A stretch of 62,083 nt of DNA from Acidimicrobiia bacterium (GTDB taxonomy: Bacteria > Actinomycetota > Acidimicrobiia > Spongiisociales > JAENVV01), in assembly GCA_041577335.1 (NCBI GenBank), contig JBFGJH010000013.1, forward strand, positions 1-62,083, in the 5' to 3' direction. Made by a program: the position numbers and the translations under genes. Every line of letters starts with the position of its first letter. Positions within the stretch are counted from its first letter, which is position 1. Below are positions 21,294 through 49,862 of this stretch, piece after piece. The notes beneath the pieces are model-generated. The model was not told where the DNA came from. It made no database searches and saw only the letters and a list, made by a program, of their open reading frames with translations.

Positions 21294-21920
21294 TCACCGC
21301 GCGTGGACCGAGTAATACGACAGAATCTGCAACTCGGTCGCCAGGTCGACGTTTCGCACCCTGGTAGTGGAAGGAACTCGAACGACGACCGGTGCGAAAT
21401 TCAGGATCGAGCCGACGCCGGCTGTCGTGAGCAGATCGGCGGTTTCCTGAGCCGCTGAGGCAGGAGTGGCGATGACGCCGATGGATACTCCGTTGCTTTC
21501 CACATCACCGGGAATATCAACAAGCGCCTGCACCGTCAGACCACCGAGCGGCTGCCCGATCTTGGATGGGTCGGCGTCGTAGACACCCACGACCCGATAC
21601 CCCGACGATCCAAAGCCACCGTAATTGGCGAGCGCAGATCCCAAGTTGCCGGCGCCGACGATCACCACGGGCCAATCTTCGGTGAGGCCCAGTTCCTTGC
21701 GGATCAAAAGGCAAAGTTGTTCCTTGTCGTAGCCGACGCCCCGCACACCGTGCGAGCCGAGATAGGAGAGGTCTTTGCGAACCTTGGCGGAGGTGACGCT
21801 GGCGATGTCTGCCAGGGTTTGGGAGGAAACGGTTGCCGGACGGCCAGGAAGCGACTCGAGACATTGCAGGTACACAGGTAGGCGAGCCACGGTCGCCCTC
21901 GGAATTGTGATCCTTTTCAC
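21294..21920 (-). CDS. rex: Redox-sensing transcriptional repressor Rex
   Basis: IPRATVARLPVY, VRKDLSYLG..GVRGVGY, GAGNLG, ILNFAP. Confidence 0.95.
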   Translation of the reverse strand: MKRITIPRATVARLPVYLQCLESLPGRPATVSSQTLADIASVTSAKVRKDLSYLGSHGVRGVGYDKEQLCLLIRKELGLTEDWPVVIVGAGNLGSALANYGGFGSSGYRVVGVYDADPSKIGQPLGGLTVQALVDIPGDVESNGVSIGVIATPASAAQETADLLTTAGVGSILNFAPVVVRVPSTTRVRNVDLATELQILSYYSVHAR

Positions 21921-21922
21921 AA
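21905..21922. promoter_or_regulatory. Rex operator overlapping the rex start codon
   Basis: TTGTGATCCTTTTCACAA, one mismatch to TTGTGAA-N4-TTCACAA. Confidence 0.75.
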
Positions 21923-21964: not shown

Positions 21965-22327
21965 TCAGGCCTCGAGCTCCCGGTTCTGTTCCGCCTCATA
22001 CCGGTTCAGCGCAACGAGGAACATGGCAAACAGAATGACGCACGCCAGCATGAACGTGAGCGGAAGGATGCGGATCTCGAACGCATTCAGACCCTCGAAG
22101 TCGGTGGGCCGAGGCCCCCGAGGCGCATACAGCACGAAGAGCAGCGAATTGAGAACGCCCCAACCGAAAACACCGGCTCCCGCAACGAGGAACCCGAGCC
22201 GCTTGCCGAGGTTCGTGGCGAGGATGAGGTACCCGGAGCCGAAGAATACGATCATCGACACCACGAACAGGAAGATGCCCGTGAACATGAGGTTCTGCGA
22301 CAGGATGTCGCGCATGAGCTCTCGCAT
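21965..22327 (-). CDS. Small 3-TM membrane protein, last gene of the Rieske/cyt b operon
   Basis: Hydrophobic helices; start overlaps the cytochrome c stop. Confidence 0.75.
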   Translation of the reverse strand: MRELMRDILSQNLMFTGIFLFVVSMIVFFGSGYLILATNLGKRLGFLVAGAGVFGWGVLNSLLFVLYAPRGPRPTDFEGLNAFEIRILPLTFMLACVILFAMFLVALNRYEAEQNRELEA

Positions 22328-23748
22328 CAGCGAAGCACCTCGCCTCTCAGGTATTGGATAACCAGGTCCAGGTCACTTTCGGATAGGACCTGTCCGAATC
22401 CGGGCATGAACCCTCGCCCGATTCCATTCACTCCGTAACCCTTGCCGACTTCGCTACCCATGCTCAGGAACTCCTTCATCTGAGCTTCGTCGAGGAACTG
22501 GACGTTGGCCCGGCCATCCCAGAGAGCCGGGCCAAGGGCGCCTGACCCAACAGGTTGAGCGAACGCGGGACCCTCGGAGTAACCCGAGGTGTGGCATCGA
22601 GCGCACTGCGACTGGAAAATGCCGACAGCGCGAGTGGCATCATCGAGATTGCCGTCGAATGTGGCGTCCGCCACCGCCTGCAAGTCGATTGCGTAGAGTC
22701 GCTCTGCCCTCGCTTCCTCCAGAAATGCGAGACCTTCTTCGGCCGTGGCCAGGATGGCGTCTTTGCGGTCGACGGTGATTTGTAAGCCGGTCAACCGGGA
22801 TTCGAGAGCCGCCACCCATGTGGAGGCCGTCTGCGAGTCGGATGCTCCGGTCGGGTCGCTGGCCGGATTGCGCGGATCCAGGACCACCGCGGCCAGCGAG
22901 GGGTCGATAGCCGCAACCTGCTCGGCCAGCGCAGCCAGTTCGGTCTCGGCCCGGTCGGTTACCCCGTCCTCATCGACATCAACACCGCCGGCGTCATCGA
23001 GGACGCTGCGAGCGCGCTCAGCCAAGGGCTGGAGCGCAGCCACCAGAGCCGGGGCTTCCTCGACGGTGCGAATCAATTCTCGCTGAGTTTCGATCTGGGC
23101 GTCAACGCTGTCATCAGCACCGGCGAGGCTGGACAGGGCAAGGTCGACAGACGTCTCGACATCGGCGACGACCTGCGACTGGGGCACCTGAATGGATCGC
23201 AGATACGCGATGACCTCGTCGATCTGCTGTTCGTTCATGGGCCCGCCACCCTCCAGGCCCCACGGTGGCATCGGAGACCCGGCCCGACCGTTCACGAGCC
23301 AGAACCGCACCTCGTCTTCGTCATAGCGATAGAAGATGTCGGTGAGATTGGGCGCGATCCACGAGACCTCCACGCCAGACCGAACATCGATATACCCGGC
23401 GACACCGCCGTTCAGAGCGGCTCCGTGACAGTCGCCGCATGCAAACTCGATGACGTGCTCGTGGCCCCGCTCCACCGCTTCGTCCGAGAACTGTTCTACA
23501 AAGCCTTCTTGGCGATCGAGTTCACCAAGCCAATAGACCGGCAGGGAGATCGCCAGGAGGCCGGAGAGAATCACAGCAACCGACAACACACGGTCGAGCC
23601 GCCTGCCCTCCAGCTCGGCGTCGGTTTTGAATGGGTCCAGATTCGGAGGTACTTCGTCTTTCGTGCGACCGCGTATGCCGGCGGCCACGAGCACGCCGAG
23701 CCACCCCAGGGCGCCGAGCGCCACGACGACGATGACGATGCTGCTCAC
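22327..23748 (-). CDS. Membrane-anchored di-heme c-type cytochrome
   Basis: CGDCH and CARCH, each with a downstream MP Met ligand; two N-terminal TM helices. Confidence 0.9.
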   Translation of the reverse strand: MSSIVIVVVALGALGWLGVLVAAGIRGRTKDEVPPNLDPFKTDAELEGRRLDRVLSVAVILSGLLAISLPVYWLGELDRQEGFVEQFSDEAVERGHEHVIEFACGDCHGAALNGGVAGYIDVRSGVEVSWIAPNLTDIFYRYDEDEVRFWLVNGRAGSPMPPWGLEGGGPMNEQQIDEVIAYLRSIQVPQSQVVADVETSVDLALSSLAGADDSVDAQIETQRELIRTVEEAPALVAALQPLAERARSVLDDAGGVDVDEDGVTDRAETELAALAEQVAAIDPSLAAVVLDPRNPASDPTGASDSQTASTWVAALESRLTGLQITVDRKDAILATAEEGLAFLEEARAERLYAIDLQAVADATFDGNLDDATRAVGIFQSQCARCHTSGYSEGPAFAQPVGSGALGPALWDGRANVQFLDEAQMKEFLSMGSEVGKGYGVNGIGRGFMPGFGQVLSESDLDLVIQYLRGEVLR

Positions 23749-23750
23749 GC

Positions 23751-24653
23751 CTACCCTTCCTCGGGAGCGCTGATGGTGATACAGCTCGGACCCAACGGGT
23801 AACTCGCGTTCTTGATCTGGGCACGTTCGGTGGCGATCACTTGACTGGTCCTGATGATGAAATCGTTGTTCTCGTCGACTTCAACGACAAACCGATCGAG
23901 GTTGCGCGGAGCCGGGCCGGACTCGTATTCGCCCAGAACGTTGTACTTCGACCCATGGCACGGGCATTCGAACCCTTGCGAATTCTGGCACCAGGGCACC
24001 CGACAACCGAGGTGCACACACCGCTGCCAGATCGCCATGAGACCCCCGGCGACTGTGGCGTTCTCTTCGAACTGGGATCCCGCTTGCTGATCGGGACCCA
24101 CCGGCACAACCCACGCCTTTGCTTCGGGAATGAACGCCGGCGTGATGGAGCCGTCCGGATTGACCACCGAAGTGAGAATCTCCGCGGCGTCGCCGGCGTC
24201 GATATCGGCACCGAAACCACCTTTGATGCGCGGCCACAGGAACCCGAGGCTGGCCAGCCCGAAGATCCCCAGCGCAGAGAAGAAGGTGCCGGCCATGGCC
24301 CGGTTCAAGAACTGGCGGCGCAAGACACCGGCTTCTTCCGGATCGATTTCGACGACGCGTCGCGCTTCGACGGCTTGGACCGGAGCGGCCACCTCAACCA
24401 CCGGCTCGGTGACGGGCTCGACCTCGAGAGTTGCCTCCTCGACGACGTCGACAGAAGTCTCGCGATGGGCGGCGGCGGTGGCGGCCGCGACGCCGGCCGG
24501 GACCCCGGCGTCGGCTGTCCGGGCGTCCTTCTCGAGGTTCTTGCGCCACTCCTCGTCTTTGGCGCTCTGGCGGAAGGCGATGCCGAACGCCGCCAGCGCT
24601 GCCAACAGAAGTGCGCCTGCCAGGAGAACGAAGATCAACTCATTCGTCGTCAT
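23751..24653 (-). CDS. Rieske 2Fe-2S subunit
   Basis: CVHLGC and CPCHGS boxes, GPAPRNL; internal twin-arginine LRRQFL. Confidence 0.95.
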   Translation of the reverse strand: MTTNELIFVLLAGALLLAALAAFGIAFRQSAKDEEWRKNLEKDARTADAGVPAGVAAATAAAHRETSVDVVEEATLEVEPVTEPVVEVAAPVQAVEARRVVEIDPEEAGVLRRQFLNRAMAGTFFSALGIFGLASLGFLWPRIKGGFGADIDAGDAAEILTSVVNPDGSITPAFIPEAKAWVVPVGPDQQAGSQFEENATVAGGLMAIWQRCVHLGCRVPWCQNSQGFECPCHGSKYNVLGEYESGPAPRNLDRFVVEVDENNDFIIRTSQVIATERAQIKNASYPLGPSCITISAPEEG

Positions 24654-25537
24654 TCGAAATCCACCCAGTCTTTGAGGTCGTCAAAGAAGATCCCGTCGGC
24701 CCACGGATACGTCCAGTTGAAGCCAGGCCCTCGAAACAGCACCCCGATGATCGTGAGAACGGCAGATCCCATGATGAAGAAGGTGTACAGAAAGATGGCG
24801 TACTTGCGGTCGGCCGGCTTGTTCGACGGATTGCGATCGACGTACGGGATCGCCATGAAACCGAGCATCCCGATGATGGTCGGGACCGTGACACCGGCGA
24901 TTTGCGGATCGAAGTACGACAGCAACTCCTGCAAACCGAGGAAATACCAGGGCGCCTTGGACGGATTTGGTGTGGCGTTGAAGTTGGCTGCTTCCAACAG
25001 CGGCGCCTGCAAGATAACCGAAAGAACAATGAGGACGGCGGTGACTGCGAGGAGCGAAGCGAACTCGGCGATCATGAGGTGGGGCCAAGTGTTGACCTTG
25101 TCGGTCGGCTCGGCCTTCACCTGCTGGATGGCCTTGGCCTTCACCACCGTCAGAAGCCGCTGGGTGCGCACTCCCTCTGGCCCAGCCTCGGATGGCACCG
25201 AGGGACGAGGTGATACCGACGTCGCAACCCGACCTCCGTTGCCTGAACCGTTCGGGGGCTCGGGAGCGGGCGACGGCGGCTCTTCGACCGCGACAGCTGC
25301 GGCGGCCGGCTCAGCGGCTGCGGCCGGCACCTCAGGTTCGGGATCGGGCACGACCACTTCGGGGGCTGGAGCGGGCTCGGGAGCGGCTTCCGGCTCAGGC
25401 GGCGTGGGTGCGGCAGCAACCGGCGTGGGCGGCGCCTCGCCACGCATCTCCGCGAGCACCTGTTCGACAGGCAGGCCGAGGGCCTTCGCCTTCGCCTCTG
25501 CCGATCGCTGTAGGAGATGTTCAGGTATATCAGCCAT
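24650..25537 (-). CDS. Cytochrome b C-terminal half (subunit IV/PetD-like) with N-terminal extension
   Basis: TPNPSKAPWYFLGLQELL (PEWY-equivalent), IPYVD; start MADIPEH. Confidence 0.88.
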   Translation of the reverse strand: MADIPEHLLQRSAEAKAKALGLPVEQVLAEMRGEAPPTPVAAAPTPPEPEAAPEPAPAPEVVVPDPEPEVPAAAAEPAAAAVAVEEPPSPAPEPPNGSGNGGRVATSVSPRPSVPSEAGPEGVRTQRLLTVVKAKAIQQVKAEPTDKVNTWPHLMIAEFASLLAVTAVLIVLSVILQAPLLEAANFNATPNPSKAPWYFLGLQELLSYFDPQIAGVTVPTIIGMLGFMAIPYVDRNPSNKPADRKYAIFLYTFFIMGSAVLTIIGVLFRGPGFNWTYPWADGIFFDDLKDWVDFE

Positions 25538-25545
25538 AGGTACTC

Positions 25546-26334
25546 CTAGAGCGGACCCGAGATTCCGCCATCCTTGCGGACCCGCCAGAAATGAACGGCC
25601 ATGAAGATGACGATGATGAATGGGAGTAACAAAACGTGCCCGACGTACCAACGCAAGATGGTGTCAGCCGACACCTCCAGGGATCCCAGCATGGCGAACT
25701 TCACTTGGTCACCAAAGACAGGCACGAAGCCGGCCATGTTCGTTCCAACCGTCACGGCCCATAGAGCTAGCTGGTCCCATGGCAACAGATAGCCGGTGAA
25801 CGACAGGAGCAAGGTCAGCAGCAGGAGAATGACGCCTACGACCCAGTTGAACTCGCGGGGCGGCTTGTACGCGCCGTGATAGAAGACGCGAGACATGTGC
25901 AGGAACACCGTCAACACCATGAAGTGGGCGCCCCAGCGGTGCATGTTGCGAACGAGTGAGCCGAATGCGACGGACGTAGACAGCTCCTGCATGTCGGCGT
26001 AGGCGGATTCGACCGTCGGCGCGTAATAGAACATCAGGAAGATCCCGGTGATCGTCAGGAGAATGAACAGGAAGAAGCTGAGGCCACCCAAGCACAATGT
26101 GTACGAAAGGCGGACACCGTGGCGCTTCACCTTGACCGGGTGCAGGTGGTAGAGCACGTTGTTCATGATGACGTATGACCGGTTCCGGGGAGAGTCGGAA
26201 TAGCCCTTCTTGAACGGAGAGCCGGGGCGGAGCACGGACTCCATGACCTGGCTCGCATGCACGCGGCTCCACGCATCAGAGGCGGCGTTCTTCGCCCGAT
26301 CCATGAGCTTCGTCTGTTCTTTGTCGTTCGCCAA
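25546..26334 (-). CDS. Cytochrome b N-terminal half (cytochrome b6-like)
   Basis: [37 protein letters not shown] heme His set. Confidence 0.93.
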
Positions 26335-26342
26335 GGGTCCCC

Positions 26343-26795
26343 CTACATCCGCAGCCCGTAGACATAACCGTTCTTGTGATCTCGTTGACCTGTGTCGACG
26401 TCCCAGGGTGCCGGCACACCTGCCTGGGTGGCTTCAGCCGAGAGTGAGCCTTCGAATTTACCGAGGGTGATGACGCCGGTGGGGCAACGATCGATACAGA
26501 GCGCGCAGCGCGTGCATTCGTTCTCATCGACCAGAAAAAAGCCCTTGGCGTCCGGGTCGGAGTGTGGGTCAGCGACTCCCTTGGCCTCTTGGATCGCATC
26601 GAGAGACAGGTAGTGAATGCACTTCCACGGACATATGTCGACGCATCCTTCGCACAGGATGCACTCGGACTGGTCGATGTGCAGAAACTGCTTTGGCTTG
26701 ACCTGAGCGATGAGGTAGTCGCCCTCGACGATGGCGAGCTGATAATCGTCTCGGATTGGAGGGGTCTCGAACCACGCGTCGCGGGCACTGGCCAT
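26343..26795 (-). CDS. 2[4Fe-4S] dicluster ferredoxin
   Basis: [12 protein letters not shown] and [12 protein letters not shown]. Confidence 0.92.
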
Positions 26796-27436
26796 CAGCG
26801 GCTGCCCTTCATGAGCGGACGGCCATACGGGGACAATTTCGGCTCCTCGACAGCTTTCGGCTCAGTCTTGCCAAAGTCCTGAACCTTGATCGCGAAGAAG
26901 ATGGCCGCACCGAGCACAGCCATGTTGTAGGTGATCGAAACGACGTCTTTGACCGCTGCAAAACTGATCGCTACGTCGTTGTTGAGCAGCAGAAACGAAA
27001 GTGAGTCCGGGAGCGAGAAGAACTCCTTTTGGGCCGTCCACGACAGCGGGCCCTGCGAGAGGTTGAGCCACTCAGAAGGAATGATCCCGAAATACAGGAC
27101 GAACTGGAACCAGGTCACGAATGCCGTGAACCCGGCACGCGCCCACGTCATCGGCTTACCGATGACCGCCAACAGAAGGACACCGACGACAATCATCTGT
27201 GAACCGGTCACCGCGACGAGTTGGCCGAGGGTCACAGAAGCCCAATGCCTGGGGATGTTGCCGAGGAACGTGTCAACCACGACATCGATCTCGACGCCGT
27301 CAACGAACTCGGTCTTGGGAAACAGGGCGTAATGGGCCCACAAGATGCCGAGCGCCAAAGCCACAGTGCCGATCGAAAGAAGAGCGAAACCGCCGATCCT
27401 TCTCTTGGAGTCGTCGAGTTGTGCCAGTCGGTTCAT
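26795..27436 (-). CDS. Membrane protein, first gene of the Rieske/cyt b operon
   Basis: About 4 TM helices; C-terminal SPYGRPL; stop overlaps the ferredoxin start. Confidence 0.75.
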   Translation of the reverse strand: MNRLAQLDDSKRRIGGFALLSIGTVALALGILWAHYALFPKTEFVDGVEIDVVVDTFLGNIPRHWASVTLGQLVAVTGSQMIVVGVLLLAVIGKPMTWARAGFTAFVTWFQFVLYFGIIPSEWLNLSQGPLSWTAQKEFFSLPDSLSFLLLNNDVAISFAAVKDVVSITYNMAVLGAAIFFAIKVQDFGKTEPKAVEEPKLSPYGRPLMKGSR

Positions 27437-27732
27437 CGTCTCGAGTCTCTCACGGGACCGCGCCCGGCCCGGCCTGCTGCTTCCGGCTTCCGGATCAGCC
27501 GCCCTGACTGGTCCGTGTCCAGGAGATTACTAGCACAATCACTCTCGAACACTGAAACCTTCGGATTGATGTCTTCGACACCGCCGAGGAGCGATCTCTG
27601 CCTCAAATCCGGTACCGTGGGTACGACCGACGGCGAGTCTCAACCCATTATGCTTTCGACGTCGTTGCGCGTGAGTGGCGCAGAGACCGACGAAGAAGAC
27701 GGCCTCGACAGCAACCAGGCAAGGAGCGCAGA

Positions 27733-29151
27733 TTGGCTGCGACATCTGAACCGACTCGACCCCTCGCCGATCTCGATTCTGCTGCGCGCAGCCACATGCT
27801 CATCGGCCTGGCATTTCTGGCGATGGCGGCAGTCTTTGGCCTGTTGGCTGCGCTGAAGCTCGCCTATCCGTCCTTCGGGGCAGCGACACCGTTCCTGTCG
27901 TACGGTCGCCTCTGGCCGATGGCGATGAACACGCTCGTGTTCGGATTCCTGACATTCTCGAATATCGCAGCCGCTTATTTCCTCATCCCGCGACTGATGG
28001 GCGCTCGGTTGCGGGGAGAACGCCTTGCCCGCCTCGCCGCCGGGCCCGGCGCAGTCATCACTGCATTGGCCATCGTCCTCGTCGGTGCGGGACTCACTCC
28101 CAACCAGGGTCGGGTGCTCGGCGAGTTCCATGTCGGCTTCGACGTCGCCCTCATTCTCTTCTATCTCGTCCCACTATTCATCTGCCTTCGCACGGTTGCG
28201 GACCGGACCGTCGAATCGATCTTCATCTCGGTGTGGTACATCCTCGGCGGGCTGCTCTGGCTCGTCGGACTCATGGTCGTCGGCCTCAACCCATGGATCG
28301 GTGGCGTCGGTTCGGCACTGCTGGGGTCCTTCTACAGCGCCGGCCTCATCGGCCTGTGGTCCGTGGGCGTTGGCATCGGTGCGGCGTATTACGTCGTGGT
28401 TCGCACGACCGACAACCCGCTCTTCTCGCGGAGCCTTGCCTTGGCGGGGTTCTGGTCGCTGGCCTTCGCCCAGGTTTGGACTGGCCCAGCATCCTTGATC
28501 TTCGGCGCTGCCGCCGAGTGGATCGAGACCATCGCAGTCGTGTTCACTCTGGGGATGATCATTCCCGCTTTGGCTGTGCTCGCCAATTTCATCGGCACCA
28601 TCCAAGGTAAATGGGCATTGGTGCGCGAGCGGTCCGATCTTCGCTTTGCAATAGTGGGCGCGGTGGTCGCGGTTTTCCTGTCACTCGTCACGAGTGCGCA
28701 AGGCTTTCGGTCAGTCGCAGTCGTAACAGGCCAAACCTCCTTCGGGCCGGCTACCCAGACGGGACTCCTCCTGGGCGTCGCTTCGTTGTATTCCGCGGCA
28801 TTCCTCTACTACGCCCTCCCCCGGGCCTTCGGGCGCACGCTCTTCTCAGAGTCGCTCGGCCGGCGCCAGCTGCAACTCACGCTGTGGGGGGTTGGTGGGC
28901 TGGTCTTGTCCATGTGGGTCGGAGGGCTGGCTGCCGGCTACACATGGCTGAGCGGCTCATACACCGGCGCCTTCGCCAGTGTCGGTGAGGGCTTCGTCAA
29001 CACGCTCAACGCCACCGGGCCTTTCCGGATCTCGGCATTCATTTTCAGCTTCGTTGTCGCTGCCGCCCAGCTCACCTTCGTTGTGAACATGTACCGCACA
29101 GTGACGAGTGGCGCGGCCGCTCCTCAAGAGGTCTTGGTGACGGCTCAATGA
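27733..29151 (+). CDS. CcoN (cbb3 oxidase subunit I)-like protein lacking His ligands
   Basis: About 12 TM helices; LSYGRL.P, FISVWY, PLFSRSL..GFW, WTGP resemble the CcoN scaffold; only 2 His in 472 aa. Confidence 0.8.
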   Translation: MAATSEPTRPLADLDSAARSHMLIGLAFLAMAAVFGLLAALKLAYPSFGAATPFLSYGRLWPMAMNTLVFGFLTFSNIAAAYFLIPRLMGARLRGERLARLAAGPGAVITALAIVLVGAGLTPNQGRVLGEFHVGFDVALILFYLVPLFICLRTVADRTVESIFISVWYILGGLLWLVGLMVVGLNPWIGGVGSALLGSFYSAGLIGLWSVGVGIGAAYYVVVRTTDNPLFSRSLALAGFWSLAFAQVWTGPASLIFGAAAEWIETIAVVFTLGMIIPALAVLANFIGTIQGKWALVRERSDLRFAIVGAVVAVFLSLVTSAQGFRSVAVVTGQTSFGPATQTGLLLGVASLYSAAFLYYALPRAFGRTLFSESLGRRQLQLTLWGVGGLVLSMWVGGLAAGYTWLSGSYTGAFASVGEGFVNTLNATGPFRISAFIFSFVVAAAQLTFVVNMYRTVTSGAAAPQEVLVTAQ

Positions 29152-29960
29152 GTGATCTCGCCGCAGCTGCTGCCGCCGTCGGTGGCCCTGAGGACCTCGT
29201 GATGCGGTCCGCCCGCGCCCGAGCCGAGGCAACCGGTGTGCCAGTCGAGGAAGTCTTGGCGGCCTGGGCAGGCGGCGGCTCTGCTCCCGCCGCGACTGCC
29301 GCGCCGGCGACTCCTGCGCCGGCAGAGGCCGAGCTCGAGGAGCAGCTCTCGCCTACACCCCCGGCCGGCGCCGTCGTCGATGAAATGCCCCGCACCGAGC
29401 CCCCTGACATGGCAACGCCGGCAACGGCTGGGCCCGTCGTCGTGGTGGACCAGCGCAAGGGCGCGGCTCCTCTGCTCACCGGGCGGACGGACCGCCCCAT
29501 GTTGTATCTCGCCGGCATCGCACTCCTCTTCATCATCGGAGCCGTTGGCGCCGTGGCGCTGCCGGCCCGCGACGCTCAGGCGGTCGCCGCCGATCAGATC
29601 CCGGGCACGACCCCGATCCTCAGCGAACTCGGCGAAGAGGGACGTCAGGTCTACATGCAGGAGGGCTGCTTCTACTGCCACACCCAGCAGGTGCGGACGG
29701 TCGTCACCGACGTCGGGCTCGGTACGGTCACCGAACCGGGAACTTCCCCTGCCTTGCCGGGCGACACGTTCGGGTATCAGCGGCTCGGGCCCGACCTCAC
29801 TCATGTGGGAAGTCGCGAGCCGACCAACGACGCGGCGTTCCTCCGCACATATCTGCGGGACCCCCTGGGCGTGGTCGACCGGAGCGACCACGCGAGCTTT
29901 GCCTACCTTTCCGATGCCGACCTCGACAGCCTCGTGCAGTACCTGATGGAGTCCCAGTGA
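29148..29960 (+). CDS. CcoO (cbb3 subunit II)-like monoheme cytochrome c
   Basis: GRQVYMQEGCFYCHTQQVR, RLGPDL..VG motifs; one TM helix. Confidence 0.88.
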   Translation: MSDLAAAAAAVGGPEDLVMRSARARAEATGVPVEEVLAAWAGGGSAPAATAAPATPAPAEAELEEQLSPTPPAGAVVDEMPRTEPPDMATPATAGPVVVVDQRKGAAPLLTGRTDRPMLYLAGIALLFIIGAVGAVALPARDAQAVAADQIPGTTPILSELGEEGRQVYMQEGCFYCHTQQVRTVVTDVGLGTVTEPGTSPALPGDTFGYQRLGPDLTHVGSREPTNDAAFLRTYLRDPLGVVDRSDHASFAYLSDADLDSLVQYLMESQ

Positions 29961-29961
29961 T

Positions 29962-31044
29962 ATGAGCGACTATCTCGCAGCAGCCGCATCCGCCGTCGGC
30001 GGGCCGGAGGATCTGGTCATGCGCTCTGCGCGTGCGAGAGCCGAAGCCGCCGGGGTACCGGTCGATGACATCTTGCGAGCCTGGGCGGGTGGCGAGGCAG
30101 CCCCGGCCGGAGCGGCCGCTCAAGCGAGTCCCGAGGCGAGTGACGAGCCAGTTCCAACCGACCCAGTCGAGGTCGCGGAGGCGCCGGCGCCCGAGCCTGA
30201 CAGCACCGAACCTTCCGGAGAACCGGTCCCGGTGGCAGCCGGCGCACCAACTCGGACGGTACAGGGGCCCCCACCCCCGGCAACGGTCACCACGAGTGAA
30301 GCAACCGAGTACGACATGGTCACCACGGTTCCATCGGTCGGCTTGAAGGAGCGCACCAATTCAATCGTGCCGGGCTGGCTGATGGCCTTCTTCGTGATCA
30401 TCCCGATCCTGGCCGTCGGTTATATCACCACCGGGTCTGGCGGCCCGCAATGCGGCGAGGCCGGCCAGCTGGCCGTCGACTTCCGCAACGAACTCGTGAA
30501 CTGCGATCTCACGGCCTATGAAGGCGCCGGCGGGCCGGGCGGCGGTGGCGCGACCAACTTCGTAGCCCTGGGCGGCGAGGTCTACGAAGCCAACTGTGCT
30601 GCCTGCCATCTGTCGAACGGCGGCGGAGGCGCAGCAGGTCCGGCTCTGAGCGGTGGGGCGGTGGTGGCGACGTTCGGGTCGTGCGCCGATCACGCAACGT
30701 GGGTGACTTTGGGAACCGCCGGTTGGACGGCCGAGATCGGAGCGACCTACGGCGACACCAACAAACCGACCGGTGGCTTTGGCAACATGCCAGGATTCGG
30801 AAGCCTGACCGAGGAGCAGATCCAGTCGGTAGCTCTCTTTGAGCGAGTGGTGTTCGGTGGTGCCAATGCCGACGAAGCTCTCGTGGATTGCGGTCTCGTG
30901 GCGACGGCCGACGGAGAAGCACCCGCCGATGGTGAGGCACCTGCGGACGGCGAAGCGCCCGCCGACGGGGAAACACCACCGGCCGAGGGCAACACACCCA
31001 CGGAAACCACCATGGCCCCGGCCGCAGCCCCTGCCACCGAATAG
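29962..31044 (+). CDS. Membrane-anchored monoheme cytochrome c
   Basis: CAACH, GPAL, NMPGF; C-terminal ADGEAP repeats. Confidence 0.85.
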   Translation: MSDYLAAAASAVGGPEDLVMRSARARAEAAGVPVDDILRAWAGGEAAPAGAAAQASPEASDEPVPTDPVEVAEAPAPEPDSTEPSGEPVPVAAGAPTRTVQGPPPPATVTTSEATEYDMVTTVPSVGLKERTNSIVPGWLMAFFVIIPILAVGYITTGSGGPQCGEAGQLAVDFRNELVNCDLTAYEGAGGPGGGGATNFVALGGEVYEANCAACHLSNGGGGAAGPALSGGAVVATFGSCADHATWVTLGTAGWTAEIGATYGDTNKPTGGFGNMPGFGSLTEEQIQSVALFERVVFGGANADEALVDCGLVATADGEAPADGEAPADGEAPADGETPPAEGNTPTETTMAPAAAPATE

Positions 31045-49564: not shown

Positions 49565-49862
49565 TCGTCGCACTTGCCGGAGCCGCATCGTGAAGAGGTT
49601 CACGACGGCAACCGTGGGCCGGTGGTCTCCCCTCCCGTACCGTTCGGTCAGAATCATCCGTCGCTCGCCGAATACTGCTTCGAGCCATACCGACATGGCT
49701 TGGGCATTACGCACCCAGCTACCTCTCATCGAACGTTAAGCGTTCGTTCATCGGGGCGCCTTAAGTTGGCAACGTCGCATCGTCACGATTGCGCACATAG
49801 GCAAAGTAGCCTCCTCCGCCACTGGACGGCGGGCCGCCAAAGGCCCGCCGTCGCCTATTAAC

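Follow-up and report, generated by a model that had tools for sequence, protein, structure and literature searches.

A CcoN homologue without metal ligands beside a Rieske/cytochrome b6 operon of Acidimicrobiia, and its possible role as a scaffold for c-type cytochromes

The window analyzed here is a stretch of 62,083 nucleotides from an Acidimicrobiia bacterium (GenBank assembly GCA_041577335.1, contig JBFGJH010000013.1, positions 1 to 62,083), and the cbb3-like operon that it carries raises a simple question: what is a cytochrome c oxidase operon kept for when its catalytic subunit appears to have no residues left to bind metals? The subunit in question is a CcoN homologue, called N* here. 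It is encoded together with a CcoO homologue (O) and a membrane-anchored cytochrome c (C3), and the three genes are intact, coupled open reading frames (ORFs) on the same strand, each cytochrome with one CxxCH motif, as the original prediction had read them from the DNA.

27733-29151, + strand: N*, cofactor-less CcoN homologue of 472 aa with the CcoN 12-helix fold; TTG start behind AAGGAG
29148-29960, + strand: O, CcoO homologue; ATGA overlap with N*, one membrane helix, CxxCH at 29667
29172-29282 (approximate bounds), + strand: helical module of about 37 aa at the start of O
29962-31044, + strand: C3, membrane-anchored monohaem cytochrome c; CxxCH at 30595, Met276 ligand
29989-30099 (approximate bounds), + strand: helical module of about 37 aa at the start of C3

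N* contains exactly two His residues, H21 and H133, and neither is located at a metal site. The protein aligns over its full length with Pseudomonas stutzeri CcoN (3mk7_A, E 5.6e-30), and this alignment gives exactly the motif losses first noticed by eye (GRLWPMA, FYSAG, WTGPAS, and PATQT), with all six ligating His replaced. H60 and H347, which we take to be the low-spin haem b pair, are A64 and T343 in N*. The presumed haem b3 ligand H345 is T341, and H207, H257, and H258, presumably the CuB ligands, are A203, A253, and S254. The cross-linked Tyr251, which is Tyr in 36 of 37 intact references and uncommon among the relatives of N* described below, is Q247. Further changes include R57 to W61, T215 to V211, S240 to A236, Y317 to A313, and H337 to G333; E122 falls in a gap of the 3mk7_A alignment and lies opposite V128 in the family alignment. 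From the set T215, Y223, S240, Y317, R57, and E122, which we assume to be residues of the K-like proton channel and the Ca/propionate site, N* retains only the equivalent of Y223. The replacement of H243 by Gly is not diagnostic, being also found in 23 of 37 intact relatives.

The same loss is seen throughout the relatives of N*. A deep profile search and a tree of 183 rows, from which rows shorter than 370 aa were dropped, define a query clade of 113 proteins. All six positions are His in the 37 intact references and none is a conserved His in the clade; thus, the loss of ligands is not a chance feature of one sequence. No alternative ligand set is conserved among the 113 proteins. No column exceeds 51% His, and the column that reaches this value is H21, near the N-terminus and distant from the sites. 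Met and Cys stay below 50% in every column, as do Asp, Glu, and Lys at the ligand positions. Conservation is highest mainly at Gly, Pro, Trp, Arg, and Tyr, and most of these columns are common to intact CcoN. At the positions of H60, H207, and H257, most clade members have a small residue (Ala, Ser, Gly), H347 is often a bulky Phe, Tyr, or Trp, as though the cavity were filled, and the Y223 equivalent is retained in 97 of 113 proteins. Among polar residues, no new one is conserved in 80% of the clade except Ser242, which is often present in intact CcoN as well. An NO reductase would be expected to show three His and a Glu or Asp for the non-haem metal, together with the haem ligands; N* has no site His, and its equivalent of E323 is V319.

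The fold, by contrast with the ligands, has been kept. Pfam PF00115 (COX1) matches N* at 120 bits, and TIGR00780 (ccoN) scores 139 bits with a cut-off of 583. An AlphaFold2 model from a 31-sequence alignment has a predicted local distance difference test score (pLDDT) of 87.7 and a predicted template modeling score (pTM) of 0.90; its best structural matches are cbb3 CcoN chains at TM 0.86-0.88, with 3MK7 at TM 0.86. N* is a descendant of the catalytic subunit of a C-family (cbb3) oxidase that kept the fold and lost the haems, CuB, the Tyr cofactor, and the proton channel. Its sequence offers nothing from which a metal centre could be built, and it is, on this reading of the ligand positions, almost certainly non-catalytic, as the original prediction had proposed. 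With the defining features gone, N* should be classified neither as a cbb3 oxidase nor as an NO reductase. A heterodimer with an intact CcoN encoded elsewhere was considered and ruled out: of the three COX1 matches in the genome of the window, two are A-family and the third is N*, and FixO is present once.

Absence of ligands in an intact frame could still mark a gene on its way out, and conservation was therefore compared among relatives. N* is matched in 53 of 61 related genomes, in some as fragments. In 40 regions fetched within the order, 36 N* proteins are near full length; the six His are all absent from 34 of these, and the other two have one each, in a non-canonical context. The frames remain full length down to 30% identity. 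By the Nei-Gojobori method (NG86), the ratio of nonsynonymous to synonymous substitution (dN/dS) of N* is 0.063-0.358 in 12 pairs within the order, 9 of which have dS above 0.7; three unsaturated pairs give 0.063, 0.143, and 0.160, and the window against its congener gives 0.18. In 8 pairs of genomes of about 1 Mb, the range is 0.040-0.116. Cytochrome b6 lies lower (0.006-0.086), and O and the Rieske protein are similar to N*. N* is kept by purifying selection and is not decaying; close relatives also lack the His, and neither of the two outcomes that would have refuted the original prediction was observed. Frameshifted or stop-containing copies were seen at loci L114, L049, L037, and L231, and may reflect sequencing error or real decay.

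Intermediate states may be found among more distant homologues. Of the 267 full rows of all searches, 156 are without any of the six His and 64 retain the complete set; five are present in 4 rows and one to four in 43. Among these 43, H347 is present in 19, H60 in 12, and exactly the H60 and H347 pair in 5. The five (L095, L104, L165, P0151, P0195) are distant CcoN homologues that keep precisely the low-spin haem pair, and P0189 keeps H345 in addition. Such proteins are possibly haem b electron carriers without a catalytic site, and their residue patterns hint that the catalytic site can be lost before the low-spin ligands.

What N* does instead may be sought first in its surroundings. A second operon diverges from the query operon across a short intergenic region and encodes a complex of the Rieske/cytochrome b type:

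27437-27732, no strand: intergenic region of 296 bp between the divergent operons
26795-27436, - strand: membrane protein of 213 aa, family-less and conserved, first gene of the partner operon
26343-26795, - strand: 2x[4Fe-4S] ferredoxin
25546-26334, - strand: N-terminal part of cytochrome b, b6 type, with CxGG motif; over the NCBIfam ExtP cut-off
24650-25537, - strand: subunit IV, likely start 25537, with N-terminal module (about 25427-25537), linker, and APWY Qo motif (motif as in PMC4122944)
23751-24653, - strand: Rieske [2Fe-2S] protein
22327-23748, - strand: dihaem cytochrome c of 473 aa
21965-22327, - strand: membrane protein of 120 aa, conserved, last gene of the partner operon

The operon has the motifs of the APWY clade, namely a split cytochrome b with CxGG, the APWY Qo motif, and a Rieske protein. 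The motif definitions are those of Kao and Hunte, who associate APWY complexes with reverse electron flow (PMC4122944). The dihaem cytochrome c is likely to take electrons from the Rieske protein. The 213-aa and 120-aa membrane proteins match no Pfam family over the cut-off. The ferredoxin ranks among the most conserved genes of the operon, and the ExtP label of the cytochrome b may be misleading here. Behind the operon follow rex, menJ, and, farther away, nuo. A scan of the intergenic region for promoters gave no sigma-70 consensus. Palindromes resembling a Rex operator, by a pattern that we take to represent it, are located at 21905-21922 (overlapping the start of rex) and 49588-49605; two matches against 0.94 expected are not significant alone.

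The suggested partnership with this divergent operon is supported by the relatives. The divergent operon is present in 37 of the 40 fetched regions, while two regions reach a contig edge and one has a split gene. Orthologous cytochrome b is found in 52 of 53 N*-positive genomes, and all 8 N*-negative relatives are also without it (best matches at most 65% identity; orthologues 77-90%). Joint absence is partly due to shared assembly gaps, which do not explain family f7, where all four genomes are 95-100% complete and lack N*, C3, and orthologous cytochrome b alike. Three of these four are without any haem-copper oxidase, and the fourth, G047, keeps an A-family enzyme. G036, an unpublished genome, was counted for N*, oxidase, and cytochrome b and contributed no sequence. 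In the phylum draw, 29 of 401 genomes matched; 20 of the 22 matches outside the order were fetched, giving 5 intact CcoN and 15 His-poor loci, 7 of which show Rieske/b genes in view. Cytochrome c maturation genes (ccm-like or res/ccs-like, by eye from the starts of the ORFs) stand between N* and the b operon in distant lineages (L096 3548-9278, L093 10419-13760, L230 10853-14439).

The two cytochromes of the query operon may link N* to this complex in a further way. O consists of an N-terminal helical module, an Ala/Pro linker, a membrane helix, and a haem c domain, with a C-terminus shorter than that of CcoO; it scores 50.5 bits on PF02433, over the cut-off, and has a single intact CxxCH. Its distal haem ligand is His248 (29889) in place of the Met of CcoO. 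A bis-His O was considered as a signature of the clade and ruled out, since the ligand varies among 35 orthologues (Met in 17, His in 16 including the window, Gln in 2). C3 is a class I monohaem cytochrome c with one membrane helix and one CxxCH, an invariant Met276 ligand, and four other invariant Cys. It cannot be taken for CcoP, a dihaem subunit that not all C-family oxidases have: it is monohaem, CcoP matches are at E 0.016 or weaker, and it reaches 22.8 bits on TIGR00782 with a cut-off of 180. The helical module of about 37 aa, on a flexible linker, opens O, C3, and cytochrome b subunit IV alike, and matches no Pfam family over the cut-off. A fourth copy was observed in an unrelated membrane protein (contig C64:15249-16391); linkers are rich in Ala/Pro/Glu, and relatives have up to five copies per protein. 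N* and O are fused as one ORF in 13 of 40 regions, and C3 carries two to four copies of the module in 6 of the 13 fused loci and one copy in unfused loci. Because the genomes are related, this pattern of copy number is no more than a hint at joint action of the modules. At L222 (10680-11663) and L029 (10279-11271) there is no O, and C3 lies directly 3' of N*; recombination between near-identical module starts, or misassembly, could explain these loci.

The acceptor of the electrons was considered from the content of whole genomes. The genome of the window (90.75% complete) has an intact caa3 operon on contig C72, whose subunit II has its own cytochrome c domain, a single cytochrome b, and no other C-family gene. 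No bd oxidase was found in this genome, to which the bd search was confined, and ccoS, ccoG, and ccoH were not found in it. A second A-family oxidase fragment on a 2.1-kb contig (C121:1-2109) may be a paralogue or contamination of the bin. In the class draw, 61 of 151 genomes matched, and family f90, with genomes of only 0.9-1.1 Mb, has N* in 24 of 26. The divergent cluster has the same order in all 16 f90 regions fetched, as far as the contigs reach; 15 of them have full-length N* with none of the six His, the copy of G761 is broken, and N*-O-C3 is found in 12. The GC content of four f90 regions is 33-36%. Each of five such genomes has exactly two COX1 genes, one A-family and N*; of four tested, three have a single cytochrome b, and a second copy in the remaining one is probably a duplicate from assembly. 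Cytochrome c domains in these genomes belong to caa3, the dihaem protein, O, and C3, and three genomes have one small extra domain. Because it is the sole cytochrome b complex and the A-family enzyme is the sole other COX1, the b6 complex is probably a forward complex III and caa3 the terminal oxidase in these genomes. A hint that caa3 is the acceptor comes from G715, where a full caa3 operon lies between N* and O (L230 1680-10719: N*, ctaC, ctaD, ctaE, ctaF, ctaG, O, C3, menJ). The N* of G715 ends in a cupredoxin domain, and two more clade members (P0119, P0080) are likewise fused.

The best explanation that can be offered, with moderate confidence as a whole, is that N* would be a cofactor-free scaffold holding two c-type cytochromes between the b6 complex and caa3. 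N* would form a membrane platform for O, seated on it as CcoO is on CcoN, and for the neighboring C3; the three together would likely dock on the split-b6 Rieske complex. Less surely, electrons would pass from menaquinol to Rieske/b6, then to the dihaem cytochrome c, then to O and C3 on N*, and finally to the caa3 encoded elsewhere; the dead oxidase would serve as a cytochrome c shuttle or an adaptor of a supercomplex. The parts of this explanation are not equally firm. That N* is a scaffold for O and C3 with the b6 complex is quite probable, and the holding of cytochromes is suggested by the N*-O fusions and by a weak complex prediction. The predicted complex of N*, O, and C3 scores 0.50 against 0.17 for the best control (0.11 with N* replaced), which is weak support; at least 67% of contacts recur between runs, and partner pLDDT is at least 74. 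Of 157 solved pairs, 116 reached the mark used, as did 2 of 215 mismatched pairs, although with scores of 0.60 or less only 18 solved pairs did so, together with both mismatches, and these counts are rough. The relay forward to caa3, whose direction is inferred, is favored only slightly.

Several observations weigh against this explanation. APWY complexes are those tied to reverse electron flow (PMC4122944). The variable ligand of O implies a loosely constrained potential, and a bis-His haem fits poorly with a high-potential wire; O is missing altogether at L029 and L222, and N* is broken in G761. N* tracks the b6 complex rather than caa3, and G047 has an A-family oxidase without N*. The caa3 insertion is known from one genome, the only one of its family in the set compared. 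Neighborhood counts come from hand-picked, related genomes with common assembly gaps, and likeness to the solved CcoN-O-P structures may add to the score of the complex prediction.

Much of this would suit a different and clearly less probable arrangement, in which N*-O-C3 belongs to the b6 complex as a structural or accessory arm off the path to caa3, serving for electron feed-in (a reverse Q cycle to ferredoxin), storage, or stabilization, while the dihaem cytochrome c feeds caa3 directly. The APWY motif, the 2x[4Fe-4S] ferredoxin encoded in the partner operon itself, the loss of N* with the b6 complex and not with caa3, the varying ligand of O, and the cytochrome c domain of caa3 subunit II are all consistent with it. 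However, the b6 complex is the only cytochrome b complex in the genomes of about 1 Mb and in that of the window, where no bd oxidase was found, and so it probably runs forward; the caa3 genes lie inside the operon in G715, and the Met ligand of C3 is invariant.

Two further roles are improbable to a similar degree. N* could be a channel or transporter of protons, ions, or gas, or could bind quinone or lipid in the empty haem cavities. The fold does have internal cavities, three ligand positions are occupied mostly by small residues, and the Y223 equivalent persists; but T215, S240, Y317, and H337 are lost, Ser242 is the only conserved polar residue that might be new and is frequent in intact CcoN, and H347 is often replaced by an aromatic residue as though to fill the cavity. 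Of the two functions in the original prediction, a scaffold or a channel, the former has thus gained support and the latter has found none. N* could also act as a redox sensor, or as a chaperone in the assembly of the b6 complex or the c-type cytochromes, rather than as a permanent subunit, as the maturation genes near N* in distant lineages and its faster evolution than cytochrome b6 might suggest. The fusions with redox domains (with CcoO in 13 of 40 regions and with cupredoxin in three proteins) point instead to a platform for electron carriers, and no conserved kinase or regulator partner was seen in the regions.

An enzyme using other ligands to reduce O2, NO, or another substrate is very improbable: altered-site haem-copper families exist, such as gNOR with one His replaced (PMC11214002), and five distant homologues retain just the two low-spin haem His, but the clade has no substitute ligand column at the sites. 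A decaying cbb3 relic is just as improbable, since, although dN/dS is several times that of cytochrome b6 and copies are broken in G761, G021 (its second copy), and G039, all 20 pairs have a ratio well below 1, the frames stay full length in distant relatives, and the streamlined genomes have kept the gene.

The loss of ligands has not been confined to this lineage. In the deep-search tree, a second His-poor group is nested among intact CcoN, and five Verrucomicrobiae loci have the order actE-actF-small ORF-N*-O-cytochrome c-ctaC, with the identity of ActE and ActF confirmed against 6F0K. A search of the phylum Verrucomicrobiota gave 112 matches in 75 of 251 genomes; 40 regions were picked by hand across the score range, one of them repeating L113, to give 44 distinct loci in total. 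In 37 of these, the cbb3 module lies behind alternative complex III, and its CcoN has six His and Tyr in 16 and is His-poor in 21; at the other 7, an intact CcoN occurs in a different context. Within the stretch fetched, the module is followed by A-family genes at 8 of the 21 His-poor loci and 2 of the 16 intact ones. Trees set the actinobacterial and verrucomicrobial dead subunits apart, both among C-family sequences; these trees have no outgroup from other families. A single origin of all His-less CcoN was rejected by the approximately unbiased (AU) test (p-AU 2e-77), which covered 33 of 72 rows under a simpler model (LG+G4) with long branches present. Several losses inside Verrucomicrobiota are suggested but not established: in both trees, starred branches force three changes, and a single clade is not rejected (p-AU 0.20). 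At L192 and L193 of Verrucomicrobiota, Rieske, cytochrome b, a 7-haem cytochrome, and intact CcoN-O occur in one run, an active counterpart of the Rieske/b-linked cbb3. Scattered His-poor CcoN proteins were also seen outside both clades (P0104, P0195, P0110, P0151; two clusters labelled Armatimonadota, a cyanobacterium).

Together with the actinobacterial case, these loci allow a broader proposal, which is tentative: dead cbb3 oxidases may be a recurring, convergent class of respiratory adaptor wiring complex III to an A-family oxidase in a supercomplex. At least twice, a cbb3 oxidase bound to complex III would have lost its catalytic centre, with the low-spin ligands going last in some lines, and its subunit would have been kept, once with a b6-type Rieske complex in Actinomycetota and once with alternative complex III in Verrucomicrobiota. 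For the scaffold explanation preferred above, the intact and His-poor copies behind alternative complex III, with A-family genes following 8 of the 21 His-poor ones, count in its favor; the A-family genes behind 2 of the 16 intact copies, and their absence from the fetched stretch of 13 of the 21 dead ones, speak against it.

Known systems resemble this one in part. Compared with CcoNOP (P. stutzeri 3MK7/5DJQ, P. aeruginosa 8SMR, R. capsulatus 6XKW), the fold (TM 0.86-0.88), the full-length match, the order of N then O, the CcoO-type haem c domain, and the occurrence of N-O fusions are alike. The N* system differs in having no haem or Cu ligands, no Tyr251, and few of the channel residues; O is shorter and often bis-His, the third subunit is not CcoP, and ccoS/ccoG/ccoH were not found in the 91% complete genome. 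In the bc1-cbb3 supercomplex of P. aeruginosa, CcoN, CcoO, and CcoP directly touch complex III (PMC10556555), and this may serve by analogy as a precedent for an interface that could outlive catalysis, although the oxidase there is active and complex III is of the bc1 type, in contrast to the split-b6 APWY complex with ferredoxin here. The ACIII-cbb3 operons of Verrucomicrobia, whose genes are treated as oxidases (PMC8498564), likewise encode a cbb3 module beside a quinol-oxidizing complex, but that complex III is unrelated and the dead subunit has a separate origin. Actinobacterial bcc-aa3 also wires menaquinol oxidation to an A-family oxidase via membrane-bound c-type haems, without a soluble shuttle; its cytochrome b is full length with PDWY, whereas here it is split with APWY (PMC4122944). 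We know of no pseudo-oxidase subunit in actinobacterial bcc-aa3.

A high-spin haem, CuB bound by three His, and a cross-linked Tyr characterize the oxygen reductases, and gNOR is called the first haem-copper member to replace one active-site His (PMC11214002). In cNOR, qNOR, gNOR, and NOD, the haem-copper scaffold has likewise been repurposed after a change in the active site; all of them keep a metal centre, whereas N* has none of the six His (PMC11214002). A search of the literature found no description of a His-less CcoN, with most subscription journals and supplements (e.g. the classifications of PMC11214002) outside its coverage. A cbb3 oxidase has been reported in six Acidimicrobiales genomes (PMC8357290).

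Since sources label the His-less homologues "cbb3-type cytochrome c oxidase subunit I", a high-affinity oxidase may be ascribed in surveys to Acidimicrobiia and Verrucomicrobiota that do not have it. The six His have been treated as fixed in the haem-copper superfamily, and in a large conserved clade with none of them a core respiratory enzyme has become a pseudo-enzyme. Copies that are intact, partly stripped, or fully stripped occupy one operon slot and provide a natural series for a supercomplex shedding its catalytic site and keeping the subunit. If the broader proposal is true, the two operons would have their products tied together by the cytoplasmic helical modules of O, C3, and subunit IV, and N* would be essential to the only respiratory chain of these streamlined marine actinobacteria.

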